From: Minisyncoccota bacterium
GTDB taxonomy: Bacteria; Patescibacteriota; Minisyncoccia; Phycocordibacterales; XYD1-FULL-46-19
Assembly (NCBI GenBank): GCA_041665625.1
Contig: JBAYIK010000001.1
Coordinates: forward strand, 68,587 to 132,586
Direction of reading: 5' to 3'
Length of the DNA: 64,000 nucleotides
This document shows, one piece after another, positions 5,988-51,997 of the stretch. Below the pieces are notes generated by a model. That model was not told the DNA's origin and did no database searches. It saw only the letters and a program-made list of their open reading frames with translations. Both the position numbers and the translations under genes were made by a program. Within the stretch, counting starts at the first letter, position 1. Every line of letters starts with the position of its first letter.

Positions 5988-6041
5988 TATTCTTATATAG
6001 CTTAAACTAAGCAATTAATTAGCAATTTTAATAACAATAAT

Positions 6042-8793: not shown

Positions 8794-8840
8794 AATGACC
8801 GGTTTCGCTCTGCGAAACCGGTCATTAGTTTTTGTGTTTT
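8794..8840. terminator. bidirectional hairpin terminator between convergent genes
   Basis: aatgaccggtttcg-ctct-cgaaaccggtcatt perfect 14-bp stem followed by tttttgtgtttt; A-run on the other side. Confidence 0.7.
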
Positions 8841-9334
8841 CTCCACCTCCTTGTTAATCTCAATCTCCAAGCCAAGAGCTTACGAGTTAAATCTGGTAAT
8901 TGTTTGCGCATCACATCGATGTGCCAACAATTGAAACCGCCAGTGGTGATCAGCAGGAACACGTTAATGATGACGAGCAACCAGAAGGTTCTCCCTTGCA
9001 AGTTGGTTAGCCACCCCAAGCAGAAGACGTAGGACAAACTCTTGCTGATAGAGAAAGAGATTGTATCGAGCGTAAAGCGGTGTAGGCTATTCTCACGGTT
9101 TATGAGACCGGTGCGATAGAGCCCTTCTCGTCCTAACCAAAACGGCAGAGCTAGGATACCATCAACAACTAAGCTAACGATACGGAAGCCCCACATGTTT
9201 AACAACGATAACCCGCAATATAGCTCGAGAGGCCAGGCGACCACCGCCCGGGCAACTCCGACGATGTTCATCGAGAGCACCGCCGCTAGCCAACCTTCGA
9301 TCATGTTCTTGAACCAGGTGTTAAGTTTTAACAC
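8825..9334 (-). CDS. hypothetical integral membrane protein (4-5 TM)
   Basis: 169-aa ORF with several hydrophobic helices; no confident family assignment. Confidence 0.5.
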   Translation of the reverse strand: MLKLNTWFKNMIEGWLAAVLSMNIVGVARAVVAWPLELYCGLSLLNMWGFRIVSLVVDGILALPFWLGREGLYRTGLINRENSLHRFTLDTISFSISKSLSYVFCLGWLTNLQGRTFWLLVIINVFLLITTGGFNCWHIDVMRKQLPDLTRKLLAWRLRLTRRWRKHKN

Positions 9335-10735: not shown

Positions 10736-10922
10736 AAAAGAAAGCGAGGAGTCCGCCATATGGGGAGTCCTCGCGAGGGGGAAAAGGGGGCTGGCACCGC
10801 GCCTTCAGTTGGGGAACTGTTGGTAAGTGGGGGGGGTAGACAGTCAGTGCACACGGTGCCAGCGGACCTTAGCCTACCATTAAGTTATTTATTTGTAAAG
10901 AGAGGGGGTGGAGCTTATTTTG

Positions 10923-10995
10923 TGGACCATAGCGGGATCGAACCGCTTACCTCTTCCATGCCATGGAAGCGCTCTACCAATTGAGCTAATGGCCC
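10923..10995 (-). tRNA. tRNA-Ala (anticodon GGC)
   Basis: Reverse complement folds as a cloverleaf: acceptor gggccat/atggtcc with G3:U70, D-arm gctc-aattggta-gagc, anticodon stem cttcc/ggaag with loop atGGCat, T-arm agcgg-ttcgatc-ccgct, discriminator A; CCA not encoded. Confidence 0.85.
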
Positions 10996-11061: not shown

Positions 11062-11469
11062 ATGTTAAAAGAATTTAAACAATTTCTCCTTCGTGGGAGT
11101 GTCGTCGATCTGGCCGTTGGTGTTGTCATTGGCGCTTCGTTTGGAACCATTGTCACTGCTCTGGTCTCCGACTTACTCACTCCACTCATCGCCGCGATTG
11201 TTCAGGCCCCAGATTTTAGTGGCCTATTCTTCACCTTGAATGGTAGCCAATTTATGTACGGTCACTTCATCAATGCCTTGATCTCCTTCCTCCTCGTGGC
11301 TAGCTCAGTCTTCTTCTTTGTCGTTAAACCAATGAATATTCTCATTGCTCGCTCGCACGAAGGCCGACCAACCGATTTTATCACCAAGAAATGTCCTGAT
11401 TGTCGCAGTGAGATTCCTAAGGATGCCAAGCGTTGCAAATTCTGTAGTCAGCCTCAAGTAATAGAATAA
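11062..11469 (+). CDS. mscL: large-conductance mechanosensitive channel MscL with C-terminal zinc-ribbon extension
   Basis: MLKEFKQFLLRGSVVDLAVGVVIGASFGTIVTALVSDLLTPLI is a classic MscL N-terminus/TM1; C-terminal CPDC...CKFC four-Cys ribbon. Confidence 0.85.
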   Translation: MLKEFKQFLLRGSVVDLAVGVVIGASFGTIVTALVSDLLTPLIAAIVQAPDFSGLFFTLNGSQFMYGHFINALISFLLVASSVFFFVVKPMNILIARSHEGRPTDFITKKCPDCRSEIPKDAKRCKFCSQPQVIE

Positions 11470-11549: not shown

Positions 11550-12314
11550 TCAGTCCTCGGTTTTCTGGGGGTAGGGCGTGAAGGCGTTCTTGCCCTTCTT
11601 GAAGCCGTTGGCCTTGCCCCAGAATTGGGCGCCGTAGACCCAGACCTGACCGTGGCAAAGGATGGTGACCCCGGAGTCCCCTTCACAAACCTCGTCGATG
11701 TCGAAGTCGTCACCGGGTGTGAAGGGGACCGAGAGGATGAAGTCTGTGGGAGTGCCTACTATCACGTAGGCCCAGACCTTCTTTTCGCAGGGCTCTAGCC
11801 ACTTCACCAAGGCGACAGCGGTGCCGGTGTTCTCGTCGGCATGGATCCATTCCCGGCTGATGAAGTCTACACTCGGGAAGGGGGCGTTCATAACCCCTTC
11901 GAGCGCCCAGAGTGTCTCCGTGATGGGGACATTCTTGACGACGAAGTCGTGGGTCCCGACGAAGCCGGTAATCCCTTCGTAGACCTCGGTCAGGGCTTCG
12001 TGGGTGTCGAAGATGAGGTGGCTGCCGAGTATCAATCGCGTGGTCGTCTCGTTCACAAAGACGGCGAGCTCGTAGCGGTCGGGGGCGCAGACTTCAGGGT
12101 TATCGGAGATCTTATCCCCTTTGATAACCCTGATCATCGAGATGAGGCCGACGCCATTCGTCGACCGCAATCCCTTGATGCCGCGCAGATCTCCGCGGAA
12201 GTCGCTCGGGGTCCAGATGGTCCGGCCTTTCTTGGCCTTCGCTAGGGCCACAGGGCTATTGCCGAAGACCGAAGGTTCGACAATGGCGTATCCAAGACGT
12301 TCTTGTTCGGGCAT
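11550..12314 (-). CDS. hypothetical protein (GC-rich islet; paralogous core shared with 12541..12936)
   Basis: ORF-track 11550..12419; start moved to Met of MPEQERLGY (ATG 12314) preceded by AAGGAGA RBS; ~57% GC; APDRYELAVFV segment matches FPRETYFEVAVFV of the neighbouring gene. Confidence 0.6.
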   Translation of the reverse strand: MPEQERLGYAIVEPSVFGNSPVALAKAKKGRTIWTPSDFRGDLRGIKGLRSTNGVGLISMIRVIKGDKISDNPEVCAPDRYELAVFVNETTTRLILGSHLIFDTHEALTEVYEGITGFVGTHDFVVKNVPITETLWALEGVMNAPFPSVDFISREWIHADENTGTAVALVKWLEPCEKKVWAYVIVGTPTDFILSVPFTPGDDFDIDEVCEGDSGVTILCHGQVWVYGAQFWGKANGFKKGKNAFTPYPQKTED

Positions 12315-12365
12315 AGTTACGGTTTCTCCTTTTTTTCCGCTGTTTTTGCCTGAGACAGAGTCTTT

Positions 12366-12420
12366 GAAACTCAACAATTCGAATAACAAAGAACTCTGAT
12401 TACCATTTCTTTTTAGCACG
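12366..12420 (-). promoter_or_regulatory. conserved promoter/leader module, copy A (upstream of 11550..12314)
   Basis: gaaactcaacaattcgaataacaaagaactctgattaccatttctttttagcac, ~75% identical to the copy at 12976-13035. Confidence 0.5.
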
Positions 12421-12439
12421 AAAATTGAGGCAAGTCAAA

Positions 12440-12469
12440 GGGCGCCGTCTCCCGGAGGAAAAGGCGCCC
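12440..12469 (-). terminator. hairpin downstream of 12541..12936
   Basis: gggcgcc-N16-ggcgccc perfect 7-bp GC stem. Confidence 0.35.
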
Positions 12470-12540
12470 AAACTAAAGTCTTGCCCTGCGTAGCCTTGGC
12501 GAAGCAGGGGAGTTCCGTCGGCTGGTCGTCAGCGTGACGA

Positions 12541-12936
12541 TCAGGCCGGGGTAGTCTCGTTCGCCGGCTCGGTGACCTTCACATCGCAGTTCTCGATGTA
12601 TATGGCCATCCTTCTGGCGATGAGATTCTCGGCCTCGAGGTTGGGGACGACGAAGGATGTCCCCTCGACCAGACACCACTCGGTTCCCGTAAGCACGAAG
12701 ACGGCGACCTCGAAGTAGGTCTCCCGGGGGAACTCCGGCTTGGGGGCCCCGGCGACCATGTTCGCGACGAACTGGAACGAGAGTCGGTCCTTGGTGCGAA
12801 GATGCTTCCGCCCGATGACCTTGGTCATGTTCTCGGTTGTCCAGGTTGTCGTCGTGGCACCAACTACCTTCGTGACCCCATCGAGGATGTCCTCAAGAGG
12901 CAGATCCGTTCGGATCACTCTAAGTTCTCTTGCCAT
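12541..12936 (-). CDS. hypothetical protein (GC-rich islet, ~131 aa)
   Basis: ORF-track 12541..12999; start moved to MARELRVIR (ATG 12936) after GAAGGAAG RBS; GC-rich; paralogous core with the adjacent gene. Confidence 0.55.
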   Translation of the reverse strand: MARELRVIRTDLPLEDILDGVTKVVGATTTTWTTENMTKVIGRKHLRTKDRLSFQFVANMVAGAPKPEFPRETYFEVAVFVLTGTEWCLVEGTSFVVPNLEAENLIARRMAIYIENCDVKVTEPANETTPA

Positions 12937-12975
12937 TTGTGTTCTTCTTCCTTCTCTGGTTGAGAGGAGTCCTCC

Positions 12976-13035
12976 GAAACTCAATATATAAAGTAACAAA
13001 GAACTCCCAATACCTTTTAATTATAGCATACAAGA
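12976..13035 (-). promoter_or_regulatory. conserved promoter/leader module, copy B (upstream of 12541..12936) with TATAAT -10 on minus strand
   Basis: gaaactcaatatataaagtaacaaagaactcccaataccttttaattatagcat; minus-strand reading contains tgcTATAATtaaaag. Confidence 0.5.
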
Positions 13036-14055: not shown

Positions 14056-14131
14056 GGGCCCTTAGCTCATCTGGTAGAGCGCCTGCTTTGCAAGCAGGAG
14101 GTGAGCGGTTCGAGCCCGCTAGGGTCCACCA
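14056..14131 (+). tRNA. tRNA-Ala (anticodon TGC), CCA encoded
   Basis: gggccct...agggtcc acceptor with G3:U70, D-arm gctc-atctggta-gagc, anticodon loop ttTGCaa, T-arm agcgg-ttcgagc-ccgct, ACCA end. Confidence 0.9.
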
Positions 14132-14170: not shown

Positions 14171-14262
14171 ACAGCTAGAGTTTAAGTTCACGCTATGGCA
14201 TCTGTTTGCTAGAGCGTTTTTATAATTTTCGTCATAACACACAAATAAGAAGGAGGTGTGAA

Positions 14263-15375
14263 GTGCTATCTCAGGACATCAACCGAATGGAAAAGGCCCT
14301 GCAGGCACACGAGGACTCTCTCTGGTACTTGCGCCAAATTTGGCAGACCCAGGGGAAGGACTCGAATTGCTTGCCCGAACCCGGAGCCTTGCGCGAAGCT
14401 CTGACGAATGGCGATTGGACAGCCGTGAATGTTATCCTCGCCATGCTGTGGACGTACTTCAAGGAGGAACTGGGGAAGGACACCGGTCTGGCCAGTATCC
14501 TTTTCTACACGGCGATGGATATTGCCGACTGGGTAAGAAACTCTCGGCGAGTTTACTCGCTCTCTCCCAGCTTGGCCGAGATGCTCCTGGCTACGGACCT
14601 TCCGAAGTTTAAGGCTCGCGACGTCAAGTTCGTCTCATTGGTTTTTGCCATTAAGTTGGAGGAGCCGGTGACAACTCCGAGCGGTAAGGTCCATGACTAT
14701 ATCGTCTTTCGCTACCTTCCGGCCGGCGAAGACGGTCTGACCGAGATTGTCATGCGGTCTTACTCGGGTGAGATGGATACTTATCAGAGGGTTTCGGCGG
14801 ACAAGAAGAAGCGGATAGAACGGTTGGCGAGGAATAACCCCGCGGGTTTTGTTCAACATTCGTCGCCTTGCATCGGCGAGTTGAACAAGGCTACCTACAC
14901 GGGCCTTGCCTTCACCTGCCCGGTCGACATCCCGCTTAACGAGATGATGACGGCCCAGGTCTTCGGCGAGGATACTCCGGTTGAAGACCGGGAAGTCCTC
15001 TTCCGCCTCTGTTTCGGCTTGAATCTCTATCTTCAGTCTTCCCGCAAGGATGATTACGAGGCAAAGAGAACGAACCGCGCCTGGCCGAACGAGCGGGGCA
15101 AGCCGGTTACGGACCAGACCGACATCTTCGACCTGAACGTCTCGACCGTCTTCCATCGCAAGTCTCACTCTCTCGAGGACGAGGAAACTTGTCGCTCTGG
15201 GGGTTACGAGATGCGCCCACACCTTCGCAACGGACACTGGCGTCGCCCTTGGGGTTATGGCAAGGACCCCGACGCTCCGGCAACGGTATGGATCAAGCCC
15301 CTGTGGGTCAGGAAAGATCTGATCGCGAAGGGTGTCCAGCCCATCGGAGCGCTACGCAAAGTGGCCAAGCGGTAG
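14263..15375 (+). CDS. hypothetical protein (GC-rich islet 2, ~370 aa)
   Basis: AGGAGG 14251-14256 then GTG 14263 in frame with ORF-track 14206..15375 (alternative ATG 14290); ~56% GC; no recognisable domain. Confidence 0.6.
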   Translation: MLSQDINRMEKALQAHEDSLWYLRQIWQTQGKDSNCLPEPGALREALTNGDWTAVNVILAMLWTYFKEELGKDTGLASILFYTAMDIADWVRNSRRVYSLSPSLAEMLLATDLPKFKARDVKFVSLVFAIKLEEPVTTPSGKVHDYIVFRYLPAGEDGLTEIVMRSYSGEMDTYQRVSADKKKRIERLARNNPAGFVQHSSPCIGELNKATYTGLAFTCPVDIPLNEMMTAQVFGEDTPVEDREVLFRLCFGLNLYLQSSRKDDYEAKRTNRAWPNERGKPVTDQTDIFDLNVSTVFHRKSHSLEDEETCRSGGYEMRPHLRNGHWRRPWGYGKDPDAPATVWIKPLWVRKDLIAKGVQPIGALRKVAKR

Positions 15376-15398
15376 TGACGAAAACCTGTGAGTATCAA

Positions 15399-15436
15399 GA
15401 GCCCGGCGCGAAAGTGTCCGGGCTCTACTGTTTTTA
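15399..15436 (+). terminator. rho-independent terminator
   Basis: gagcccgg-cgcgaaagtgt-ccgggctc stem then ctgttttt. Confidence 0.65.
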
Positions 15437-15566
15437 TAAAATATTAATTATCTAGACACATTAAAGAAAATGTGTTAGTAATAGTTTCAGATTAAGTTCT
15501 TCCGTGGTGAACATAAGTAGCCATAGGAATTGTAAATAATTGCGGACAAAAGGAGATCCAAGCACT

Positions 15567-16286
15567 ATGCCTGATGGTTCAAGTCGTGATTGGGCTGAAG
15601 TCGTCAAACGCAACCCCAAGGGGGACTTCGAGTTCCAGGGAAATGGGAACACTGTCCTCCGCGGGCCGGTCAAGAGCATAACCCTCAGCGACGAAGGACT
15701 CGTCTCCATCGACCTCTGGTGGGCCGCCGAGATGCCCGTCATGGGTGAAGAAGGCTTCGGAATCTGGCATGCCTCGAACAAGCGGCACTTCGGGTTCCCC
15801 AACTTTGCCCTTCCCTATGTCATCGAGGACACCCCGGAGAAGGGCGAGCGCATTCGCTTCGGCATCTCCCTCATCTACCTCGAGCGCCTCGAGGGAGAGA
15901 ACACCTTGGACGTCAGGAAGGTCAATGGTCTCACCTGCGTGACACACGTTGTCGCTGCTCCCGATGGCCCTTGCCCCGCCGGCGGTGTCGCTCTCTCGGT
16001 GGTCTACCGGGATGTGAGCGGTCAGTCATGGGCCGATCCGACCCAAACAATTTCCCCCGAGGAGATTGCCGCAGCCGTTCAGCGCTGCGAGTTCCTGGCG
16101 TTGAAGACGCCGCTGTACCTGACCGAGACGCAGCACATCTTATTCCTGCCGAACGGCAAGTTCGTCTTGGCCGATCTCCGCGACGGGAAGCCCATCGAGG
16201 AGATTGAAGAGGAGGTCGAGTTCGCCGAAGCCCCCGCTCCGGCTCCGGCCGAAGAACCTCCGGCCCCCGAGCCCCCGCAAGAATAA
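15567..16286 (+). CDS. hypothetical protein with Pro/Ala/Glu-rich C-terminus (GC-rich islet 2)
   Basis: AAAGGAG 15550-15556 then ATG 15567 (ORF-track 15540); ~58% GC; C-terminus EEEVEFAEAPAPAPAEEPPAPEPPQE. Confidence 0.55.
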   Translation: MPDGSSRDWAEVVKRNPKGDFEFQGNGNTVLRGPVKSITLSDEGLVSIDLWWAAEMPVMGEEGFGIWHASNKRHFGFPNFALPYVIEDTPEKGERIRFGISLIYLERLEGENTLDVRKVNGLTCVTHVVAAPDGPCPAGGVALSVVYRDVSGQSWADPTQTISPEEIAAAVQRCEFLALKTPLYLTETQHILFLPNGKFVLADLRDGKPIEEIEEEVEFAEAPAPAPAEEPPAPEPPQE

Positions 16287-24078: not shown

Positions 24079-25048
24079 ATATATGACGAATCACGGTCTC
24101 AAGATCGGCGTTATAGACATCAAGATCCTCAACCTCAAAGAGACCCAGTAATTGGCGCAGAGAATCTTGGAGATTCATTTGGTTGACGTTGGCCACAACT
24201 GTAATCTTAGCCTTATCTTTGGCGAGATAACGTAGGCCTTCTGGCAAGGCTGGGAATTCGGTGAATTTATTTTTAGCAATGAGGTCAATATATTTCTCAT
24301 AAGCAAAAGTCTTAGCCAGTTCGGTTGTTGGGATATCTTTAATTACCAGCCCATGATTAATAATAGTGCGATCACACAGAGACTCAATGTCACCGACATC
24401 GTGGGAAGTTAAGAAGATAGTAGTTTTTTCTTCTTTGTTAATTTTCAATAATAAATCACGCAAAGCTTTTTTGGCGACGACATCCAAGCCAATGGTTGGT
24501 TCGTCGAGAAGAATAATTTGAGGTTTGTGAATTAAAGATGCCGCCACTTCGGCTCTCATGCGTTGGCCCAGTGAGAGCTTGCGTACTGGTTGGCGGATAA
24601 AATCACCGAGGTCAAAGAGTTTTACCAATTCGGCAATACGCACTTTAATTTCCTCATCAGGGATGTCATACATCACGCCAAAGAATTCTAATGAGTCAGT
24701 GAGAGGTAGATTGGGAAAGAGTTGCGAGCGCTGACCAAAGACAGTGCCAATCTTATAGGCCAATTGCTTGCGATCTTTAGTAGGGTCAAGACCTAAGACA
24801 CTAATTGTACCAGCTGTCGGGAAGAGAATCCCGGTAAGCATCTTGATGGTCGTAGACTTGCCCGCGCCATTGGGGCCAATGAAGGCTACGCGTTCGCCCG
24901 ACTTAATAGAGAAAGAGATGTTATCAACAGCGATTATCTCCTTGGTTTCGGGGACAAATAAATTCTTAATCCAGCCGTGAGAAGCATTCTTCGCTTTGTA
25001 AGTGAATTTTTTAGTTAAGCCAGAGACAATAATTGAATTAGCTTTCAT
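24053..25048 (-). CDS. ABC transporter ATP-binding protein
   Basis: Walker A GPNGAGKSTT, signature LSLGQRMR, Walker [13 protein letters not shown]. Confidence 0.9.
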   Translation of the reverse strand: MKANSIIVSGLTKKFTYKAKNASHGWIKNLFVPETKEIIAVDNISFSIKSGERVAFIGPNGAGKSTTIKMLTGILFPTAGTISVLGLDPTKDRKQLAYKIGTVFGQRSQLFPNLPLTDSLEFFGVMYDIPDEEIKVRIAELVKLFDLGDFIRQPVRKLSLGQRMRAEVAASLIHKPQIILLDEPTIGLDVVAKKALRDLLLKINKEEKTTIFLTSHDVGDIESLCDRTIINHGLVIKDIPTTELAKTFAYEKYIDLIAKNKFTEFPALPEGLRYLAKDKAKITVVANVNQMNLQDSLRQLLGLFEVEDLDVYNADLETVIRHIYERDSTGY

Positions 25049-25105
25049 TCAATTTATTTTAACACAAGGGAGTGTTTTTAGTTAAAAGGGGATAACGAAT
25101 TAATA

Positions 25106-25133
25106 TTGACAATATTTAAATATACTTTATAAT
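25106..25133 (+). promoter_or_regulatory. consensus sigma70-like promoter (TTGACA-16-TATAAT) driving GC-rich islet 3
   Basis: TTGACA 25106-25111, TATAAT 25128-25133. Confidence 0.55.
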
Positions 25134-25196
25134 CTCAAGTAGAAAAACCGAGCCAGATCGGCTCATAACGCTCATTGAGAGAAGGACTAGAGAAAG

Positions 25197-25724
25197 ATGA
25201 AGACTTTTAGCGTCCTCATTTTGGGGACAGAATGTCGAGATCTGGCATCAGGCCTGAAAGGGACCGTGACGCACTGGACCTGCGACATGGGAGGGAGAGT
25301 TGAATACTTCTTCCAGCCCCTCGGGTTGGATGAGGACGGACAACCGGTCAAGAAGCTTTATGTCTGCGACCAACGACTGGAGGTCAAGCCGAAGGACTTC
25401 GAAGCGGTAGAGGTGCCCTTCGAGATCCTTGGGACGATAGTCACCGACAAGGCCAGCGGGTTCACCGGTATGGCGATAAACTTCGTTCGCCATCTCAATG
25501 GGTGTTTCCATGTGGTGATCCAGCCACAGGGGATGCTCAAGGGGAAGAACGTCCCGGTTGAAGCGGCGGATTTTGACCTCAGAGGCTGCAAGGGGAAGAT
25601 GATAACGCAGATGTCGGAGGAAGAGAAGAAGGAAAGCACACAGAAGAATCCTTCCCCCACCGGCGATCGTTTCACTCGGCCCCAGCCCCCCTCGTCCCCG
25701 AAGCCCCCTTCTTGCCGGCGATAG
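25197..25724 (+). CDS. hypothetical protein (GC-rich islet 3)
   Basis: 175-aa ORF, ~57% GC, Pro/Ser-rich basic C-terminus; no motif. Confidence 0.5.
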   Translation: MKTFSVLILGTECRDLASGLKGTVTHWTCDMGGRVEYFFQPLGLDEDGQPVKKLYVCDQRLEVKPKDFEAVEVPFEILGTIVTDKASGFTGMAINFVRHLNGCFHVVIQPQGMLKGKNVPVEAADFDLRGCKGKMITQMSEEEKKESTQKNPSPTGDRFTRPQPPSSPKPPSCRR

Positions 25725-25735
25725 CCTGGCAAATC

Positions 25736-25778
25736 CCGCCCGAAGAGCCGCTCGCTCTTCGGGCGGTTTCTATTTTTG
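25736..25778 (+). terminator. strong rho-independent terminator
   Basis: ccgcccgaagagc-cgctc-gctcttcgggcgg perfect 13-bp stem followed by tttctattttt. Confidence 0.75.
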
Positions 25779-26111
25779 GATTAAATCTCTTAAATTTGTT
25801 ATAGTTTCCCCATGTCATTAAGTATCGGAATCCTGCGAGCGTCGCACGTCTGTTTGAGATCAAAGAAAGTACCTTCCTTCTTCCATTCGAGTTCGTAATA
25901 AAATTACCTAAGCCTAAATGGCAAACAATTAAGGGGTTTAAACGCCCTAAAAAAGAGGGGATTAAATAAACTTATAAAACATTGACATTTTTTGTAAATG
26001 TTATATAACATAAGAGGATTAAAACTTTGTCAAAGACTAGGAATAATAAGGAATTGAGGCTCAAAACAACAACCCAACTCTTAATTGAGTAGGGAGTGAG
26101 GAGACCGCTTC

Positions 26112-27329
26112 ATGAAGAACTTGTTGGTAGTGGTACTTGTGGTACTGTTCAGCCTGACCTTGGCCCTGTCGGCCCAGGCTGGCGCCTTCAGCCCAACACC
26201 CGGTGGACGTTCCACTGGGACCCAACTTGGAGGAGACCAGAGCGACGGTTCGCTTCTGGCTTCGGACCTTTGGGGGTATTTTGACCTCCACAAGGAAGAG
26301 AAACTCAAACTGAATTTTGGCACAGAAGTTATCGTGCCCAAGTTTACTGTCGAGGACGCCTTCGGACACAAGCAGGCATCGCGAGGAATTTACCATCCGC
26401 TACCGTGGGCAACCGCGGCGTGGCAGGTGAGCGATAAACTCGCCGTAGGCTTGAATGTCGACAACCCCTTCCGGCTCGGTTCGGCCTACAAGGCCAACCC
26501 CTACCAGTATGGGTTCGACACACAGAGCCTTGTCGGTCTCACAACCGCAAGCTTTCTCGCTGATATCAAACTCAGCGACAAACTGCACTTGTCGTTCGGA
26601 CCAGTCGTTGGGGTGGCACAGGTCATCTACAACGCAGCCTTCGACCTCGACCGTACGCCGCTCCCGATCTTTACTGAGACCAAAGCCATGGGCATTGGTT
26701 TTGGGGGAACAGCGAGCTTGTTCTGGTCACCTAACGACCGGACGAGGTTGGGCTTGCAGTATGTGAGCCCGATAGCCCCGGATATCTGGGGACACACCAA
26801 GATCCATATTTTGGGGTTCACGATTAAGGACCGCATCGAATTGCGGGATATCGTGTTCCCACAGACGGTCACGGTGGCCGGGAGTTACCAAATTACCGAC
26901 CGAATCCAACTTGACGGCGACGCTTACTGGGCGAATTACAACAACACCCCGCGCGCGTTCGAGCTCAAGTTCCGTAACTTGGGTATTGTTCACCCTCTCC
27001 CCACCGAATTTGTCGATGTCTTCGGTATCCACGCCGGAGCCAACTACAAAATCAATGAGGACTGGATGGTTCGCGGAGGAGTTGGCTGGCTCTCACAGGG
27101 TGTGCCTGACAAGAGGTTGGACACTCTGACTCAAGACGTCGCGGGCTGGGATCTGGCCGCAGGTCTCAGCTATAAGGGTCTCAACTTCGGTTGGACCCAT
27201 GCTTGGGGATCAAGCAACACGGGGAGTGGTCTTTCGTACAAGAAATACGGCATCACCATCGACACCTTCAGCGTCGGGGGAACCATCCAATGGCGCCCAC
27301 GGCCCAACAATTGCAACAACAGGAGTTAA
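26112..27329 (+). CDS. secreted beta-barrel protein resembling the FadL/OmpP1/TodX outer-membrane transporter family (tentative)
   Basis: Signal peptide (LVVVLVVLFSLTLALSAQA). Alternating-hydrophobic amphipathic beta-strands throughout (GLSYKGLNFGWTHAW, YGITIDTFSVGG, YQITDRIQLDGDAYWANY). Segment PWATAAWQVSDKLAVGLNVDNPFRLGSAY resembles FadL [20 protein letters not shown]. ~56% GC. Confidence 0.45.
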   Translation: MKNLLVVVLVVLFSLTLALSAQAGAFSPTPGGRSTGTQLGGDQSDGSLLASDLWGYFDLHKEEKLKLNFGTEVIVPKFTVEDAFGHKQASRGIYHPLPWATAAWQVSDKLAVGLNVDNPFRLGSAYKANPYQYGFDTQSLVGLTTASFLADIKLSDKLHLSFGPVVGVAQVIYNAAFDLDRTPLPIFTETKAMGIGFGGTASLFWSPNDRTRLGLQYVSPIAPDIWGHTKIHILGFTIKDRIELRDIVFPQTVTVAGSYQITDRIQLDGDAYWANYNNTPRAFELKFRNLGIVHPLPTEFVDVFGIHAGANYKINEDWMVRGGVGWLSQGVPDKRLDTLTQDVAGWDLAAGLSYKGLNFGWTHAWGSSNTGSGLSYKKYGITIDTFSVGGTIQWRPRPNNCNNRS

Positions 27330-27335
27330 GTCGCC

Positions 27336-27587
27336 ATGAAGAAGCTCTATTTTTGGGGAATTGAATTCCCCCTACAGACCCTGCTCACAGCCATCTTGTC
27401 ACTCGTCTTCGGGCTGGGCTTCTCGATCTGGATTGCTGTGATGCATCTGGTCGAAATCCGCTCGTTTTGGACCGGTTGGCGTGATGAGTTGACCTTCTGG
27501 ACAGGAGGAGTCGTGACGTTCTTTCTTGGAGCAATTCTTTGCCCTGTCTATGGCCTTCAAGAGGTCTGGGCTGAGGCTCACACCTAG
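27336..27587 (+). CDS. small membrane protein (2 TM)
   Basis: 83-aa ORF 6 nt after the beta-barrel gene, two hydrophobic helices. Confidence 0.4.
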   Translation: MKKLYFWGIEFPLQTLLTAILSLVFGLGFSIWIAVMHLVEIRSFWTGWRDELTFWTGGVVTFFLGAILCPVYGLQEVWAEAHT

Positions 27588-27813
27588 TCCACACGCAATG
27601 ACCGCACAATCGGCCACTTTCCACAGGGAGAGGGGCCGATTTCTAATTGACCTAAAATTTTAAGCATCAATCTTCTAACCGTTGACAGGTAAGAGATTAT
27701 GAGCTATTCTATTGACAGATTCGTAAGAATGATGGATTATCTGCCATCTTCAAGCGATTGATCTTATTATATGGTTACGAGGTTAAAGAATACCCCTAAA
27801 AAGGAGAAGTCCC

Positions 27814-28950
27814 ATGACGACACGAAGCTTTGCGTTTATTGCTCACTACGTGGAAGACTGGAACTGGCTCCTCAGGTGGTGCCTCTTCAGTCGACTCCAT
27901 ACCCACCCCGCCGAGCATTTCTACTGGAGCTGGTTGTGGCCGATTTATACGGTCGCAGCGCTCTTGGACATGATCGGCAAGAAATCGTTCGACGTCGTCG
28001 ATGATTTCGCCTTTGGTAAAAAGTTGCGGGGTCGGACAGTCCTTCTACGCAACTTCGCTTGGCAATTTTTCATCCCACAGTATCGGGATCGGATTCGGGA
28101 ACGGATTCTGAAAACGGTATTAGAAACCCAGAAATTCGTCGAGGTGATAGGGCTTGGAGCCCTCATCAAAGACGAGAGTCTGACTCGTGGCGGGGAGTGG
28201 ATTGTCGAGAAACTTGGTAGTCAGCTCAAGGTCCCAATTGTCCACGGTGACACCCTTACGGCTGCCACGGTCTTTGAACAGGTCATGGCTCTAAGAGAAA
28301 AAAGAGGGCTTGAAGCCGATGATCCCGTGATGGTTACAGGTTCGACGAGTAAGATAGGACGAGCCATTGTCCTGCTTCTTGCGGAGAAGGGAATTAAGGT
28401 GAAGATGTTCACTCTCAGTAACGATCGCTTCCTCGCGATAAAGACTGAGGCTGGCGCCAAGAGCGAGAACATTGAGTGGGCCTCGTCCCTCTCGGATGGC
28501 AAGTGTTGCCCGATCTGGGTGACAGGGAAATCAATTCCCCGTGGCCGAGACCTTTTGGACCTCATCCCTTACGAGGCTGATGTTCTAAACTTCGCGGTAC
28601 CGAATCCGCTGAACGTGTCTTGGAAAAAGACGCGGTCTGATCTGGTTTTCCATGAGGGAGGACTCTTGGCCTACAAGCCTGATACAACGAGTCTGCGCTT
28701 CACCATGAGACTTCGTCCTGGTCTCACTTACGCCTGCCACGCTGGAACAATGGTCCATGCCGCTATGGGCTGGACTCATCACGAAGTGGGCCAGGTCGAT
28801 ATCCCCCAGATTGAAGTGACCTGGAAGGCAGCCCTAGAACTGGGATTTTCCCTTCCTCCACTTGGCGAGCGCGAGCTAGTTGGGAACAAAATAGAAGGAG
28901 AGGTCAAACAGCTTAAGTCTGCCAAGAACTTCTTGTCCTGGTTTTTCTAA
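27814..28950 (+). CDS. NAD(P)-binding oxidoreductase resembling the cyanobacterial long-chain acyl-ACP reductase (AAR) family (tentative)
   Basis: AAGGAGA RBS then ATG 27814. SFAFIAH near the N-terminus (AAR begins MFGLIGH). HGDTLTAATV, Rossmann motif VMVTGSTSKIGRAIV (AAR: VAVVGATGDIGSAV) and MVHAAMGWTH (AAR: MLLEFEGWH) align by eye. Confidence 0.5.
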   Translation: MTTRSFAFIAHYVEDWNWLLRWCLFSRLHTHPAEHFYWSWLWPIYTVAALLDMIGKKSFDVVDDFAFGKKLRGRTVLLRNFAWQFFIPQYRDRIRERILKTVLETQKFVEVIGLGALIKDESLTRGGEWIVEKLGSQLKVPIVHGDTLTAATVFEQVMALREKRGLEADDPVMVTGSTSKIGRAIVLLLAEKGIKVKMFTLSNDRFLAIKTEAGAKSENIEWASSLSDGKCCPIWVTGKSIPRGRDLLDLIPYEADVLNFAVPNPLNVSWKKTRSDLVFHEGGLLAYKPDTTSLRFTMRLRPGLTYACHAGTMVHAAMGWTHHEVGQVDIPQIEVTWKAALELGFSLPPLGERELVGNKIEGEVKQLKSAKNFLSWFF

Positions 28951-28971
28951 ACAGGTCACCTCAGTAAACAG

Positions 28972-29025
28972 ATCCGGCTCTTCCATAACAACGTTTTGCG
29001 TTGCGGGGGGGCCGGATATTTTGTT
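28972..29025 (+). terminator. compound hairpin terminator closing GC-rich islet 3
   Basis: atccggc...gccggat outer stem with inner caacg-tttt-cgttg hairpin, followed by attttgtt. Confidence 0.5.
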
Positions 29026-29054
29026 ATAATAAAAAAGACTTTTTAAATCTATCT

Positions 29055-31220
29055 ATGGACATCACAACAATCTTACCTTTAGTCAGTGCTATCTTTGTTT
29101 TTGGTTTGGGTATTTTTGTTTTGCTAAAGAATACGAATTCTAGGTTGAATGTCACCTTTTTCCTTCACGCCATTGCTATTTCTTTTTGGCTTTTTGCTAC
29201 CTTTATGATGTTCCTTAACAAAGGGAATATTGATCAAATTGTCTTCTGGGATCGAATGGTTTATGTCGGGGTTGTTTTTATCCCCACTTTTATGTATCAC
29301 TTCTGTTTGGCCCTAACCAATCGTCCTAAAAATTTTGCCCTTTACCTGTCATATATTTTAGCTGTTTTCTTTTTAATCGTTAGTCAGACAGATTTTTTTG
29401 TCCGAGATATCTTTGTTTATCAATGGGGTGTCCACACTAAGGCTCAACTTTTCCACCATCTTTTCCTTGTTTATTTTGCCGTCTATGTTGTGGCTGGATT
29501 TACTATCATTTATTCATATTATCGACAAGAGGCAATCTCTTCTATTCGTCGGCAACAAATTAAGTATTCTTTTCTGGCATTTTTCTTTCTATTCACCATT
29601 GGGCCGTTAGCTTTTTTGCCCGCCTATGGTATCGGCATCTATCCTTTTGCTTATTTGTCGGGTGTTATTTTCGCTATCATTTTAAGTTATGCCATTCTTC
29701 GTTACAGGTTAATGAATATCCAGATTATTGCCCGAAAAATATTTATCTATGCCGGAGTTGCTGTTTTTGCCTATTTTGTTTTTTACTTGCTCTCTTGGGT
29801 CTACACAGAATTCTTGGGAGGAATTTTTACTTTGAAGAGCTATCTCTTCGGGATGGTTATTGCCCCAACCTTTGTTTTTCTTTTATATAAGACGGAGAAT
29901 GTCATCAGGTCTTTTGCGAATCAATATTTTTTCTTCGCTCTTTATAATTATCAAGAAACAATTAACCGTGTCTCTGGCCAACTAACTCACTATACCGACT
30001 TATCTAAAATCGACGGCTTGGTCTCGGACACCATTAAGGAATCTCTTGGCGTCACGCGAGTAGAGATAAATTTATTTGATAAAAATAGTCGCTCAGCAAA
30101 AAAGGATCCACTTATAAAATATTTGCAAACTAATCAACGGCCGGTCGTGTTGGAAGAGCTAAACCTTTTGGTTAATGACGAGAGACTAAAAGACCAGCGA
30201 GAAACTTTTAGTGCTGTTTACGAACAAGTTGAAAACTTGGGAGCGGCGATCTGTTTACCGATGGTCAGTAACGAGCGTCTGATTGGCATTATTATTCTTG
30301 GACCTAAAGTAATTGGCGATCCGTTTACTGTCGAAGACCTAGAATTGTTGATGACGCTTTCAAACCAAGCCGCGATTGCGATTGATAACGCTGAATTGTA
30401 CAAGGAGGTTAAGGACTTTAATAAAACACTCAAGCAAAAAGTTAATGAACAGACGATGAGCTTGCAAGATAAAACAAAAGTTTTGGAGGAGCAAGCGGAA
30501 CACTTAAAGAAACTGTTGGCTATGAGGTCAGAGTTCCTTGATATTGCTTCACACCAACTGAAGACACCAATCTCCGTTATTTCTGGCACCATCTCCATGT
30601 TTAAAGAGGGTTCGGTGCAAAAGATGCCTGTTGAGACACAGAATAAGTTAATTGATAATATTTACCAGAAGTCACTTAAGATTAGTCAGATTATTCGTGA
30701 TATTCTCCAGGCTTCTGAGTTTGATACCGAGAAATTTAGTTTTGTGGAAAAAAGAATCGTGCCCGTTGAACTCAACAAGCTACTGTCCGATGTCATGACG
30801 GACAACCAATCCTTTGCCGATGAGAAAAAACTTAAATTGGTCTTCACCCCCAATCCCGCTAACCCGCAAGTCAATTCTGACCCCGATTATCTCGAGCAAG
30901 CCTTCTTTAATTTGGTTGATAACGCTCTTAAATACACCAAGGAGGGTAAGGTCGAGGTGCTACTGGACGAAAATCCCCAAAGTATTATCATTAAGGTTAA
31001 AGATACTGGTGTCGGTATCCCCAAAGATGATCAGATAAGAATGTTTGGCAAGTTCGAGCGAGCAAAAAACGCTGTTGATATGTATACGGATGGTTCTGGC
31101 CTAGGCCTCTTTATCACTAAAGAAATTATCGAAGCCCACCCTGGTGGCACGGTCACTTTCGCTAGTGAGGAAGGTAAAGGCACTGAGTTCACAGTAATAA
31201 TTCCCAAAACTAAAAAATAA
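29055..31220 (+). CDS. multi-TM sensor histidine kinase with GAF domain
   Basis: ~8 N-terminal TM helices, GAF-like region (ICLPMVSNERLIGIIILGPK...), H-box ASHQLKTPISVI, HATPase_c (DNALKYT...GSGLGLFI); start at Met of MDITTIL (ORF-track 29001). Confidence 0.85.
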   Translation: MDITTILPLVSAIFVFGLGIFVLLKNTNSRLNVTFFLHAIAISFWLFATFMMFLNKGNIDQIVFWDRMVYVGVVFIPTFMYHFCLALTNRPKNFALYLSYILAVFFLIVSQTDFFVRDIFVYQWGVHTKAQLFHHLFLVYFAVYVVAGFTIIYSYYRQEAISSIRRQQIKYSFLAFFFLFTIGPLAFLPAYGIGIYPFAYLSGVIFAIILSYAILRYRLMNIQIIARKIFIYAGVAVFAYFVFYLLSWVYTEFLGGIFTLKSYLFGMVIAPTFVFLLYKTENVIRSFANQYFFFALYNYQETINRVSGQLTHYTDLSKIDGLVSDTIKESLGVTRVEINLFDKNSRSAKKDPLIKYLQTNQRPVVLEELNLLVNDERLKDQRETFSAVYEQVENLGAAICLPMVSNERLIGIIILGPKVIGDPFTVEDLELLMTLSNQAAIAIDNAELYKEVKDFNKTLKQKVNEQTMSLQDKTKVLEEQAEHLKKLLAMRSEFLDIASHQLKTPISVISGTISMFKEGSVQKMPVETQNKLIDNIYQKSLKISQIIRDILQASEFDTEKFSFVEKRIVPVELNKLLSDVMTDNQSFADEKKLKLVFTPNPANPQVNSDPDYLEQAFFNLVDNALKYTKEGKVEVLLDENPQSIIIKVKDTGVGIPKDDQIRMFGKFERAKNAVDMYTDGSGLGLFITKEIIEAHPGGTVTFASEEGKGTEFTVIIPKTKK

Positions 31221-31228
31221 TAAATATT

Positions 31229-31612
31229 ATGGCTGAAGAAATAAAACAAGTATTGATGATTGAGGATGATAAAGATCAGATATTTTTGTATAAATCAGCC
31301 TTTGATCTAATGAAAATCCCTAGTGTTATGGCGCTCGGTGGCGAGATTGGAGTTGAACAAGCCAAGAGATGGCTTCCTAAAGTCATTGTCTTAGATATCG
31401 TTATGGAGGGTATGGATGGTGAAGAAGTATTGAAACAATTAAAAACTGACCCCACCACTAAAGATATCCCAGTTATTGTCTTTACTAATCTCGACAAGAA
31501 ACCGGTTAAAGAAAAATTTATGGCTCTCGGTGCCACCGAGTTCTGGGGCAAGACTGAATTAATGCCAATGGCCTTAGCGGCTAAAGTTCAAGACTATTTT
31601 GATCGAAGGTAA
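31229..31612 (+). CDS. single-domain response regulator (REC only)
   Basis: Receiver-like fold with VIVLDIVMEGMDG phospho-acceptor context; 127 aa; 8 nt after the kinase gene. Confidence 0.7.
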   Translation: MAEEIKQVLMIEDDKDQIFLYKSAFDLMKIPSVMALGGEIGVEQAKRWLPKVIVLDIVMEGMDGEEVLKQLKTDPTTKDIPVIVFTNLDKKPVKEKFMALGATEFWGKTELMPMALAAKVQDYFDRR

Positions 31613-37345: not shown

Positions 37346-38425
37346 CTAATCTTGCAATAGCAGTTTTTTTGTTTTTAAACTACTTAAAATATACTTTAAG
37401 AATCTCATCCTGGTCGCTGTGGCTATACCAGGGTATATTTTCTCATCCATGGCAACAAGACCAACAAATCCGAGATAAACTACGGCTATTTCTTTTATAA
37501 ATAAATCATTTGTCTCGGAAATATATTTTTCTATAAAGATATTTGCCAACTTTTTGTAATAATCATTTTTGAGATAATAGGACATGCAAATTAGATAAGA
37601 ATAAAGACAACCAACATCAACACCTGGTTCGCCAAATTCGAATCTAGAGTAGTCTATGAAGTCGACATCCCCGTTGTCTCTGACGAGAATATTTTTAGGT
37701 ATAAAATCTCCATGAATTAAGCTGATTCTCTGATAATATTTTTGGTAATATTCTATAACCTCGAGCATTTCTTTAAGGTAATCAGCCTTGACCTTTCCTC
37801 GGAAAATCTTACTCTCCCCCAAATTGTTAACAATAAAAGAGATTGATAGCTCTGGATGAATCATTACGTCCTTCAGACATCGGCTGTACTTCTCTCTTTT
37901 TTGGTCCTCTGTAAATTTTGGTTTTATTTTATGAACCTCCGCTAATTTTTTTGCAATATGTCCTATTGTCTCAATGTCACCGGGCAGAATAAGTCCACTC
38001 TTGGGGGTCATTAATAAGTCTTGGTAGATGTTTCCTTCTAAAAAATCTTGGAATTGGAGGGCCATGTCATCTTCTGTGATGGAGGGAAGAGAGACAATTT
38101 TTTTCTCCTTAGCCAAATATAAATAGGACCTTGAGAAATTTTTCCTACCATTGGCCTTGTTGTTAATTTTTTGGCTTAAAACGTAGGATAGGACCTGATC
38201 TTCCTTTCTTTCTAATCCACAAAAAGCCCTCTCTCTGGAGACTTTACAAATATAGGCTTTATCTAAGTTTCCAATAACCTTATCAAAAACCTCAATTTTA
38301 TAGACATCTGACAAAAAACCACCAGGAATTTCCTTTATTTTGATGGAAAAATTTTCTTCTTTAATATTGAACTTAGAAGATAGAATTTTCCTTATCTGTG
38401 TTTCGGCCTCTGGTGACTTTTTCAT
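37346..38425 (-). CDS. phosphotransferase-family kinase (APH/choline-kinase-like fold)
   Basis: Brenner motif LIHGDFIPKNILV and DFIDYSRFEFG; protein kinase-like fold. Confidence 0.65.
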   Translation of the reverse strand: MKKSPEAETQIRKILSSKFNIKEENFSIKIKEIPGGFLSDVYKIEVFDKVIGNLDKAYICKVSRERAFCGLERKEDQVLSYVLSQKINNKANGRKNFSRSYLYLAKEKKIVSLPSITEDDMALQFQDFLEGNIYQDLLMTPKSGLILPGDIETIGHIAKKLAEVHKIKPKFTEDQKREKYSRCLKDVMIHPELSISFIVNNLGESKIFRGKVKADYLKEMLEVIEYYQKYYQRISLIHGDFIPKNILVRDNGDVDFIDYSRFEFGEPGVDVGCLYSYLICMSYYLKNDYYKKLANIFIEKYISETNDLFIKEIAVVYLGFVGLVAMDEKIYPGIATATRMRFLKYILSSLKTKKLLLQD

Positions 38426-39474: not shown

Positions 39475-39637
39475 AAAATACCTGTCGTTTAGATATTGAT
39501 GGTCTTTGTCTTTTGTTATTTTAATGATATGAATAAAATACTTATCCTTGCAATAGCCCTAAAATCCTTGTACAGTCAACTCTAACCCTGTTCTTTGTTT
39601 TTAACGTTAACCCCCCTTAGAAAGGAGGTGATTGGTC

Positions 39638-40288
39638 ATGAAGACAGCAATAGACAAGCCTGTGGCGACCGGTGAGGACCATGTGAGCTTCTTGAGACGG
39701 TTTAGGCTCAAAGTGACACCAACTGACCTTAAACGGCTCGATATGGCCTATGACATGGCGAAATACGGCCACCGTAACCAGTTTCGGGAGTCAGGCGAAC
39801 GATACTTCGAGCATGTCAGGAACACGGCGATCATCCTTGTCGATGAACTAGGAGTTTACGACGTTGAGCTGATAATGGCCGCGTTGCTCCATGACATCTT
39901 GGAGGATAGCTTCCTACTCAAAGGTGATCGAACCGAAATGATCTTTGGGGCTCGCGTGGCTTACATAACCACAACAGTCTCTAAGCTCCCCAAGGACGAT
40001 CCACGTTTTGCTACGCCGAAGCAACGACTACTCTTCTATCATCAGCAGATCAAGAATGGCAACTGGGAGGTTAAGTTGGTCAAATTGGCCGACCGCCTCC
40101 ACAATCTGCGGACATTAATGAGTTGCTCGTTGGAGAAACAAAAGCGTAAACTGGCCGAAACGAAAAGGTCCTATCTGCCTCTGGTCCGTGATCTCAGCAG
40201 TGATTACCGCGAAACGGCCAAGCAACTCGAGACGGCTTTTCGCCAAGCCATCGCGACCGTTCAGAAGTCCATAGCCTCCGCATGGTGA
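39638..40288 (+). CDS. HD-domain (p)ppGpp-hydrolase-like protein (RelA/SpoT N-terminal hydrolase type)
   Basis: AGGAGG 39622-39627 then ATG 39638; AKYGHRNQFRESGERYFEHVRNTAIIL...AALLHDILED matches the RelA/SpoT HD hydrolase signature; locally higher GC. Confidence 0.6.
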   Translation: MKTAIDKPVATGEDHVSFLRRFRLKVTPTDLKRLDMAYDMAKYGHRNQFRESGERYFEHVRNTAIILVDELGVYDVELIMAALLHDILEDSFLLKGDRTEMIFGARVAYITTTVSKLPKDDPRFATPKQRLLFYHQQIKNGNWEVKLVKLADRLHNLRTLMSCSLEKQKRKLAETKRSYLPLVRDLSSDYRETAKQLETAFRQAIATVQKSIASAW

Positions 40289-41192: not shown

Positions 41193-41304
41193 TTATCTTC
41201 TAATAATAGACTTTTTGTGGCCGAAATTAAAGGGCTAAAAGTCTTCTTTATTTAAACTTAAATCTGTGGTAGTATTTAAAGACAATTTAATATTAGAAGT
41301 AGCC

Positions 41305-41450
41305 TAAACCAGTGAGTAATCGCTGGCATGGTGAATAAGCCCAGTCAAACGTAAAGAACCCAACATGTGGGGCCGTTTGACTGGCTGTATCGGGAAACCG
41401 ATGCAGAGGGCGCAAGCTCTCACTCACGTGTTGGGCTTTTTGGTTTCTAA
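41305..41450 (+). ncRNA. candidate structured RNA (unknown family) with GNRA hairpin and long-range stem ending in a T-tract
   Basis: GC-rich 145-nt island in an AT-rich intergenic region. ccagtcaaacg/cgtttgactgg 11-bp stem, atcgg-GAAA-ccgat tetraloop hairpin, cccaacatgtg pairing with cacgtgttggg followed by ctttttggttt. Confidence 0.3.
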
Positions 41451-41479: not shown

Positions 41480-41992
41480 ATGGGCTTTTTCTCAAACATC
41501 TCTTCTCAGGGGAAATTTAATAAAAAATTGACGACGGTTTCGACACATCGGAATAAAATTTTGATGTCAGAAATTAAGTCAGTTCACCCATTGTTTACAA
41601 TCATTCCGATGTACCTGGGATCTTTTTATCAAGGAGTATTAACAGATGACAAAGCTAGTGTATTTTTTGAGATATTAGCCGAAGCCACCGAACAACAAAT
41701 TGATTTTGTTAATAGACTCCTCACTGTATGGTTTTTTTGGTCCGCCGACCGTCTTATGGATATAAAAGTTTTAAAAGAGAGAAGTGTCGTTGTCGGTTTT
41801 AGTAAGGTTTGGTCTCTGTCGGATGTTGAATTAAAATCTCTGGTTTCTTCTCTGGATGCATCTGGTCAAGGTAAAGATATTTTATATTTGTGGAAGAAGA
41901 TAGAGGAAGTCCTCAATCATGGAGATATTAATCCGCTATATGTTTTTCCTCATTTGAGAAATGCAATGACATCAGTCTTGCAAGGTAGGTAA
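41480..41992 (+). CDS. hypothetical protein
   Basis: 170-aa ORF, no motif recognised. Confidence 0.45.
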   Translation: MGFFSNISSQGKFNKKLTTVSTHRNKILMSEIKSVHPLFTIIPMYLGSFYQGVLTDDKASVFFEILAEATEQQIDFVNRLLTVWFFWSADRLMDIKVLKERSVVVGFSKVWSLSDVELKSLVSSLDASGQGKDILYLWKKIEEVLNHGDINPLYVFPHLRNAMTSVLQGR

Positions 41993-44788: not shown

Positions 44789-45105
44789 AATAATTAAAGG
44801 TTAACGAGTAAAGACCTCGCTGGACTAGAGTGAGGAAAGGGGTGAAGTAACCAAGTCATCGACCTATTTCTTAATCACTTCAATTATTTAGTCGATAAAT
44901 TCTTAGGGGGGTACCCGGGGTTGTTCGGTTAACATCCCTAGATTGTGGCTGGTACCATAAGGTAGCGGGGACATTCTCGCCCGTGGCGACTATTTCCAAT
45001 CTCTATTAAAAAGGCCTAATCTGACCACCCTTAGATTAGGGAAAAATTTTTGTAAAAATTTGCCAAAAGTGCTATCATCTTGTCAAGTATGAAGTTATTC
45101 TCATA

Positions 45106-46074: not shown

Positions 46075-46078
46075 GTAT

Positions 46079-48640: not shown

Positions 48641-48643
48641 TAA

Positions 48644-51193: not shown

Positions 51194-51196
51194 GCC

Positions 51197-51988: not shown

Positions 51989-51997
51989 CCTTTTACT

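Follow-up and report, generated by a model that had tools for sequence, protein, structure and literature searches.

A new AAR-fold reductase family coupled to a 7TM-GAF sensor kinase across Patescibacteria, extended by a short-hatch FadL-type barrel in one Paceibacteria clade

FadL-family proteins form channels through which long-chain fatty acids, among other hydrophobic molecules, pass passively. Patescibacteria, also called the Candidate Phyla Radiation (CPR), are tiny symbiotic bacteria that are thought to have neither an outer membrane nor fatty-acid synthesis. Comparative envelope studies have placed the CPR in a monoderm clade (10.1101/2021.05.31.446380; PMC8871954). In the superfamily of the acyl-acyl-carrier-protein reductases (AAR) and terminal amidation domains (TAD), the acyl group of a carrier-protein thioester is transferred to an invariant Cys next to the nicotinamide (10.1101/2024.10.28.620694), and PigE, a further enzyme of this kind, reduces a thioester to an aldehyde (PMC8341465). 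Here we analyse a 64,000-nt stretch of DNA from a Minisyncoccota bacterium (positions 68,587 to 132,586 of contig JBAYIK010000001.1, assembly GCA_041665625.1; hereafter the window, in whose positions all coordinates are given unless a locus is named). Its G/C-rich region at 25100-29030 holds four genes, A to D, among them a FadL-type barrel (B) and an AAR-like reductase (D). We find that this region comprises three quarters of a conserved Patescibacteria module together with the unrelated gene A, and that the sensor kinase and response regulator encoded directly downstream belong to the same module. New are an AAR-fold family and a FadL subfamily with a short hatch, brought together with a 7TM-GAF two-component system in a CPR-specific module. 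The literature searches turned up no report that connects FadL or AAR-like enzymes with CPR/Patescibacteria, and for the HisKA_7TM domain only census papers.

The core of the module is gene D (27814-28950, + strand, 378 aa) plus an adjacent sensor histidine kinase (HK; 29055-31220, + strand; Pfam HisKA_7TM, GAF, HisKA and HATPase_c), often accompanied by a response regulator (RR), which in the window is receiver-only (31229-31612, + strand, 127 aa; Pfam Response_reg). As listed, the HK reading frame starts at a TTG at 29001; translation more probably begins at the ATG at 29055. Among distinct loci with downstream sequence available, 26 of 30 have an HK orthologue immediately after D in the same orientation, and every Patescibacteria locus inspected shows D and then a HisKA_7TM-GAF kinase on one strand. 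The four exceptions are metagenome-assembled genomes (MAGs) labelled Deltaproteobacteria, Myxococcota, Dehalococcoidia and Desulfohalobiaceae. A response regulator is present near D-HK in 11 loci. The pairwise identities of D and HK correlate over 18 loci (r = 0.71; Mantel 0/2000), with the same clades in both proteins. The preliminary description of this DNA had placed the four open reading frames (ORFs) correctly, and its gene content for the region stands; its right-hand boundary at 29030 does not, as it severs the module from the conserved kinase partner. Several third-party (TPA) MAGs with a CPR-type D-HK pair are titled 'uncultured Gammaproteobacteria' (L011, L020, L022 and L025-L027 in our numbering of related loci); these labels look unreliable, and we see in them no evidence of a proteobacterial distribution. 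The window encodes a second histidine kinase and receiver pair at 5007-6422 (326 aa and 126 aa), which is unrelated and resembles the HK and RR of the module only via generic catalytic domains.

In one Paceibacteria clade this core is extended by B (26112-27329, + strand, 405 aa) and C (27336-27587, + strand, 83 aa). B adjoins a reductase in 10/10 informative loci and is confined to a single D-HK clade (the window, L001, L019, L022, L034, L035/L037, L036, L038, L040 and L042), and the order B-D-HK is common to lineages whose proteins are only 30-55% identical. Gene C matched no Pfam or NCBIfam family. Its product was described beforehand as a mini-protein with two transmembrane (TM) segments, and two hydrophobic 19-mers were indeed found. 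C-like 2-TM proteins are weakly conserved and usually lie beside B on either strand; weak homologues (E 1e-4 to 3e-7) directly follow B in L001, L019, L038, L039, L040 and L041. One of the loci titled gammaproteobacterial, L022, has full B-D-HK-GatC-GatA synteny.

Gene D encodes an enzyme with the fold and the catalytic apparatus of AAR. An alignment by eye had suggested cyanobacterial aldehyde-forming AAR on account of the motifs FAFIAH, HGDTLTAA, VTGSTSKIGRAIV and MVHAAMGWTH, all of which are present. That assignment is borne out by profile, fold and catalytic Cys, but not as orthology: the 25 NCBIfam matches listed for D, of which the N-terminal part of PigE is the best, do not include the AAR equivalog, and in a single-sequence phmmer search of the PDB no AAR appeared at E <= 1, only weak Rossmann matches. 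Since identity to AAR in the Foldseek alignments is 15-18% and there is no direct pairwise match, D represents a separate, new family rather than an orthologue of AAR. Its match to Pfam PF12076 (CER1-like_C) scores 68.6 bits, above the cut-off of 28.3, and a family profile finds cyanobacterial AAR (6jzq) as the best PDB match over nearly the full length (4e-8). In this alignment the AAR residue Cys294 (FAC(294)FAE) falls on the invariant Cys308 of D (YAC(308)HAG; TYACH), and the entry of the AAR C294S mutant (6jzz) scores lower with the same profile. The AAR segment GATGDIG(S) aligns to a nearly invariant TG(S/A)TSKIGR of D (TGSTSKIG in the profile alignment). Among 29 aligned homologues HGDTLTAA, TG-TSKIG-R, NF-VP-P and Y-A-C308-H309 are invariant or nearly so. 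An acidic residue is lacking at the end of beta-2 in D, which would be compatible with NADPH. The AlphaFold2 (AF2) model is confident (pLDDT 90, pTM 0.87), and a Foldseek search of the PDB places AAR chains on top (TM 0.67-0.77), then the carmabin TAD, with generic Rossmann folds at only ~0.35; D does not group with the ordinary short-chain dehydrogenase/reductase (SDR) or shikimate dehydrogenase families. D has no transmembrane segment. More than 160 homologues were found (47-82% identity), most of the named ones from Patescibacteria, and D is 100% identical to WCV68_00485, encoded on a 293-kb contig of a Candidatus Paceibacterota MAG. In L012 (7914-10082), the MAG labelled Dehalococcoidia, the D homologue forms the N-terminal half of a 722-aa protein whose C-terminal ~330 aa belong to no family; there is no kinase, and an acyl-CoA dehydrogenase is encoded two genes upstream.

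The chemistry is narrowed down by one locus, L034. There, a non-homologous gene (L034 8187-9278) occupies the slot of D between the B orthologue (150 bits) and the kinase orthologue (659 bits); it encodes a 363-aa NAD_binding_4 protein (PF07993, 108.7 bits; TIGR01746 thioester-reductase domain; best PDB match MxaA). As an analogous, non-homologous reductase takes the place of D, the locus suggests that the activity selected there is acyl-thioester reduction. The same locus bears on a different view of the D-HK pair, in which D sits on the input side of signalling and either makes a ligand for the GAF or 7TM part of the kinase, e.g. an aldehyde, or acts as a co-sensor that binds NAD(P)H or an acyl thioester. 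The strict, direction-conserved pairing in 26/30 loci would fit such a role, as would the GAF domain, which typically binds small molecules, and the fact that most pairs lack B, so that the pairing is independent of uptake. However, between D and HK there is a terminator-like hairpin as well as a promoter-like site, and the replacement in L034 argues that catalysis is conserved rather than protein-protein contact, although synthesis of a ligand would still fit. We therefore consider an input role of D rather unlikely.

Gene B encodes a beta-barrel of the FadL/OmpP1/TodX family, as the preliminary description had proposed from local similarity, and Pfam, PDB profile search, structural model and Foldseek agree on this. 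B matches PF03349 at 51 bits (gathering cut-off 29.7). With a profile of 14 family members the Pseudomonas aeruginosa FadL homologue is found at 3.5e-26 and Escherichia coli FadL at ~2e-23, and the alignment to FadL extends as far as the C-terminal strand. The AF2 model (pLDDT 80, pTM 0.79) is almost all beta over residues 65-393, and its top 24 Foldseek matches in the PDB are all FadL, TodX, TbuX or CymD (TM 0.60-0.74). DSSP assigns 18 beta segments to the model, some of which are probably split strands or loop hairpins. The predicted signal peptide is present and of Sec type (MKNLLVVVLVVLFSLTLALSAQA before GA, cleavage of the type AQA then GA). Whether the barrel has an N-terminal hatch had been asked earlier; B does not have a classical one. 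The segment after the signal peptide has 40 residues, ~27 fewer than in the classical homologue P0133, and lacks the NPA motif that P0133 has; no alignment to FadL is obtained for it, and its modelling confidence is low to moderate. Where FadL has Asp348, B has a different residue. In an exhaustive profile search, short relatives (~385-400 aa) made up ~35 clusters and merged gradually into thousands of classical FadLs (410-460 aa); the few named short relatives are Vogelbacteria. A metagenome scan for B, run with narrow search patterns, gave 7 loci. B and its relatives constitute a new, short-hatch FadL subfamily.

The C-terminus of the barrel resembles the beta-signal of diderm bacteria in that the terminal residue is F or W in 9/15 aligned members. 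In the window the last strand of B ends in W and is followed by an 11-aa basic tail. This Pro/Asn-rich tail (RPRPNNCNNRS, 27297-27329) is found after the terminal aromatic residue in B of the window and in four relatives, while most members end at the aromatic residue; a beta-signal occluded by the tail could mean a different insertion route. No BamA/Omp85 was found by Pfam scans of the ORFs of the 64-kb window. That a barrel of outer-membrane type is odd in this host had been pointed out before, and it is indeed so, the lineage being treated as monoderm in the literature.

The cargo of B and the substrate of D could also be other than lipids: D might act on a non-lipid thioester, in a TAD-like amidation or release of peptides or polyketides or in the reduction of an activated amino acid, with B carrying another hydrophobic compound, e.g. 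an aromatic one. In a PDB search with the single sequence, the best match of B is in fact the toluene channel TbuX (5.5e-9), TAD domains of nonribosomal peptide synthetase (NRPS) and polyketide synthase (PKS) lines are the second-best structural relatives of D, and the JGI label of the D family is 'predicted amino acid dehydrogenase'. Yet the family profile of B ranks FadL proper above TodX and TbuX, AAR outscores TAD in both profile and fold searches, and the analogous replacement in L034 belongs to the fatty acyl reductase (FAR)/thioester reductase (TR) family. D stands alone, and no NRPS, PKS or carrier-protein gene occurs in any locus examined. Taken together, a non-lipid substrate appears improbable to us, more so than a role of D in signal input.

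Transcription signals are dense in this region, with 11 promoter-like sites as compared to 3.9 +/- 1.7 in shuffled sequences. Upstream of A we confirm the consensus promoter reported earlier, a sigma-70-type site at 25106-25133 (+ strand) that matches TTGACA-16-TATAAT at 12/12 positions. Each transcription unit has a promoter-like site and a terminator hairpin. Gene A (25197-25724, + strand, 175 aa) is followed by an intrinsic-terminator-like hairpin at 25736-25766 (+ strand; 13-bp stem including 10 G-C pairs and, after it, a U-rich tract; minimum free energy (MFE) -28.6 kcal/mol, z -4.6). B is preceded by TTGACA-18-TAACAT (25982-26011, + strand, 10/12), and 3' of C, which starts 6 nt after B, lies a hairpin at 27608-27641 (+ strand; MFE -22.3 kcal/mol, z -3.5) followed by UUUCUAAUU. 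Two tandem promoter-like sites precede D (27682-27740, + strand; TTGACA-17-TATTCT and TTGACA-17-GATTAT, 10/12 each, starting at 27682 and 27712). The element TTGACAG...GATTAT occurs twice in tandem and could be a pair of alternative promoters or a direct-repeat binding site of the response regulator. The hairpin 3' of D (28967-29025, + strand; MFE -29.7 kcal/mol, z -4.5; then AUUUUGUU) overlaps the 5' end of the kinase ORF as mechanically called from the TTG. Because of the hairpins after A, C and D and the short gap between B and C, the transcription units are probably [A], [B-C], [D] and [HK-RR], with C co-transcribed with B. Rfam, searched at a permissive threshold (E <= 1), gave no family in 25000-29100, and 8-mers or operators shared by the regions upstream of A, B, D and HK were sought without a convincing result.

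Gene A lies inside the studied region and outside the module. It encodes a conserved hypothetical protein of 175 aa with a Pro/Ser-rich tail and matched no Pfam or NCBIfam family. Its 174 homologues (identity up to 68%; 53-68% among the 120 listed) come from Paceibacterota, Taylorbacteria and Minisyncoccia and sit in unrelated neighbourhoods. We considered A as a member of the module and rejected this, as it does not co-occur with D loci and its homologues are found in unrelated contexts; A is an independent, widespread Paceibacteria gene.

The G/C-rich islet that first drew attention to the region is real, and the enrichment is found at synonymous sites: the G/C content at third codon positions (GC3) of A, B, C and D is 0.71, 0.68, 0.63 and 0.60, as compared to ~0.33-0.46 for most other genes. 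C-ending and G-ending codons are both raised, the latter as much as the former. The islet had been read as a laterally acquired block. On such a view the region would be a recent foreign island, with its lipid-uptake barrel and its AAR brought in from a donor that was diderm or cyanobacterial. The GC3 contrast with the flanking genes favours this, and the joint rise of G- and C-ending codons looks more like a compositional shift than like purely translational selection; in addition, FadL is otherwise a diderm family, and the profile of B grades into thousands of classical FadLs. Nevertheless, the comparison across loci speaks clearly against an import. In most loci examined, D is richer in G/C than the adjacent kinase and the locus as a whole (GC3 of D/HK 0.54/0.24 in L020, 0.65/0.28 in L022 and 0.58/0.36 in L030), with little or no difference in L008, L016, L023 and L035. 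B and C are likewise enriched where measured (L001, L019, L022, L035), and homologues of A are G/C-rich within their own genomes, e.g. 0.47 versus 0.33 in L032. Thus the same families are G/C-enriched in many other Patescibacteria genomes, and all four are widespread in or largely confined to Patescibacteria. D co-diverges with a low-G/C kinase partner to which it is coupled vertically, the B-D-HK order is kept among lineages with strongly diverged proteins (30-55% identity), and A is distributed independently. The nearest classical FadL is only 25% identical to B (first search), AAR only 15-18% to D, and no integrase, tRNA or repeat was found at the borders of 25100-29030. Co-divergence of D and HK and the cross-locus G/C comparisons lead us to reject a recent import of the B-D segment, and a foreign island is the least likely of the readings considered here, a very improbable one.

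High G/C content is therefore not evidence of recent import; it tracks gene families across genomes. As D and the kinase co-diverge, the compositional contrast between them is long-lived, having been kept over a long period of vertical descent. Expression-linked codon selection is a possible cause, in view of the strong promoters and terminators. Against translational selection speaks that G-ending codons rise too, and the window has no ribosomal-protein genes for comparison. Further genes with high GC3 (0.62-0.74) lie at 11550-12999 (-), 14206-16286 (+), 8825-9334 (-) and 39632-40288 (+); most lack a Pfam family (the product of 39632-40288 is an HD-domain protein), and signal peptides are absent from all of them. 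The groups at 11550-12999 and 14206-16286 are bracketed by two tRNA-Ala genes (10922-10995, - strand; 14056-14131, + strand). We considered these two groups as encoding further outer-membrane proteins and rejected this, as they have neither signal peptides nor families. Such G/C-rich islets seem to be typical of this genome in general. That they follow particular gene families and are not recent imports matters for calls of horizontal gene transfer in CPR MAGs.

Our working model, which we hold to be somewhat better supported than not, joins a lipid channel (B), a thioester reductase (D) and a two-component system (HK-RR) that senses lipids or the membrane. B would be a passive channel that lets in scavenged hydrophobic acyl compounds from outside, with C as its membrane accessory. 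For D we infer the substrate and product from AAR: an acyl group would be passed from an ACP or CoA thioester onto Cys308 and then reduced with NAD(P)H, probably to the aldehyde. The 7TM-GAF kinase and the RR would sense the state of the membrane or its lipids, and the direction of regulation would be from this pair to the adjacent, separately transcribed B-C and D. The separate promoter-like sites and terminators of [B-C], [D] and [HK-RR] fit B and D as regulated targets, and an acyl-CoA dehydrogenase two genes from the D homologue in the Dehalococcoidia-labelled MAG is in line with acyl chemistry.

Several points weigh against this model. With the CPR reported as monoderm, a FadL barrel would have no evident membrane to insert into; and with a shortened hatch, no NPA and no conserved Asp348, its gating may differ. 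At 15-18% identity to AAR the enzymatic role of D is a prediction from sequence and model, and aldehyde release may not occur at all in the TAD branch of the superfamily. Most D-HK loci have no B, and D is therefore not dependent on B. Pfam scans of the 64-kb window gave no ACP, acyl-ACP or acyl-CoA synthetase (FadD), Pls gene or aldehyde-consuming enzyme; thus the fatty-acid activation genes and the aldehyde decarbonylase that the preliminary description had named for checking did not turn up there, and this ferritin-like enzyme, the aldehyde-deformylating oxygenase (ADO), is likewise missing from all related loci examined. The RR of the window has no output domain, and the operator search found none shared by the regions upstream of B and D.

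A stronger form of the model holds that this Paceibacteria clade has a dedicated module for lipid acquisition and remodelling, in which acyl compounds enter through a genuine outer-membrane-type FadL and an AAR-like reductase acts under a CPR-wide 7TM sensor of the membrane state. We regard this as doubtful. If it applied, possible sites of the barrel would be an unrecognised outer lipid barrier of the cells themselves or, after export, the outer membrane of a host bacterium, from which fatty acids would be siphoned.

The rest of the window is Patescibacteria-like, with aminoacyl-tRNA synthetases, UvrA, UvrC, Ddl, an LD-carboxypeptidase and many proteins without a family; it also carries a type I restriction-modification (R-M) system, a prim-pol and a serine recombinase. 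The latter are part of a mobile or defence-like block at ~45100-60770, which comprises a NucS/PDDEXK-like nuclease, type I R-M subunits (46079-51193), a SMODS nucleotidyltransferase with DUF6602 (51197-52687), an RNase H, an S49 peptidase, a Prim-Pol/AAA_25 protein (56288-58159) and a large serine recombinase (59073-60767). A LOOT RNA (Rfam RF03000) at 41301-41421 (+ strand; 87.6 bits, gathering cut-off 46.4) lies directly upstream of a 170-aa ORF without a family (41480-41992). The MscL mechanosensitive channel at 11062-11469 (+ strand) has a C-terminal zinc-ribbon-like tail of the form CxxC...CxxC (weak UPF0547 match). About 8 kb from the module, a kinase of the APH/choline-ethanolamine type (37346-38425, - strand; weak matches) could serve in the salvage of lipid head groups.

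How CPR bacteria obtain and tailor membrane lipids without fatty-acid synthesis, and how their envelope is built, are questions for which the locus offers concrete candidates: a FadL-type channel in a lineage considered monoderm, and an AAR-fold reductase locked to a 7TM-GAF kinase across many CPR classes, with the enzyme replacement in L034 narrowing down the chemistry. A further point is that the AAR fold is here uncoupled from alkane biosynthesis.

Compared with E. coli FadL and its homologues (P. aeruginosa FadL 3DWO, TodX, TbuX and CymD), B has the same Pfam family (PF03349; profile E 1e-16 to 3.5e-26), a like barrel fold (TM 0.60-0.74), a Sec signal peptide and, in most members of its family, an aromatic end of the final strand. 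It differs from classical FadL in being ~30-50 residues shorter, in a host lineage considered monoderm and in a gene that always adjoins a thioester reductase. AAR (EC 1.2.1.80; Synechococcus elongatus, PDB 6JZQ/6JZU/6JZY) and D share a full-length fold (TM 0.69-0.77, ~370 aligned columns) with two lobes, an N-terminal domain and a Rossmann domain that includes a C-terminal helical part. The alignment pairs Cys294 with Cys308 and likewise matches the Gly-rich dinucleotide and GxTxTA motifs; both are stand-alone, soluble proteins of ~340-380 aa. Unlike AAR, D has a Trp-rich N-terminal helix region and matches PF12076, and its conserved partner is a sensor kinase, with no ADO in the window. The N-terminal domain of PigE, from the MAP pathway of prodigiosin synthesis, and the carmabin TAD (PDB 9E4U) belong to the same AAR-like superfamily, the former as the best NCBIfam match of D and the latter as its second-best structural match; these occur as parts of larger proteins, with a transaminase or NRPS modules as fusion partners, within biosynthetic clusters, whereas D is free-standing and in no such cluster. 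The NAD_binding_4 reductases (FAR, the R-domain of MxaA) share with D the slot between B and HK, as seen in L034, and are presumably equivalent in function, but they have an unrelated extended-SDR fold and Tyr-Lys chemistry with no acyl-Cys intermediate. In its proposed regulation, the module resembles des-desK-desR of Bacillus subtilis, in which the gene of a lipid-modifying enzyme likewise stands beside a multi-TM kinase and a response regulator and is transcribed separately. Des is a desaturase, and DesK has five TM helices and no GAF domain. Neither Des and D nor DesK and the HisKA_7TM region are homologous, and the likeness is one of functional analogy only.

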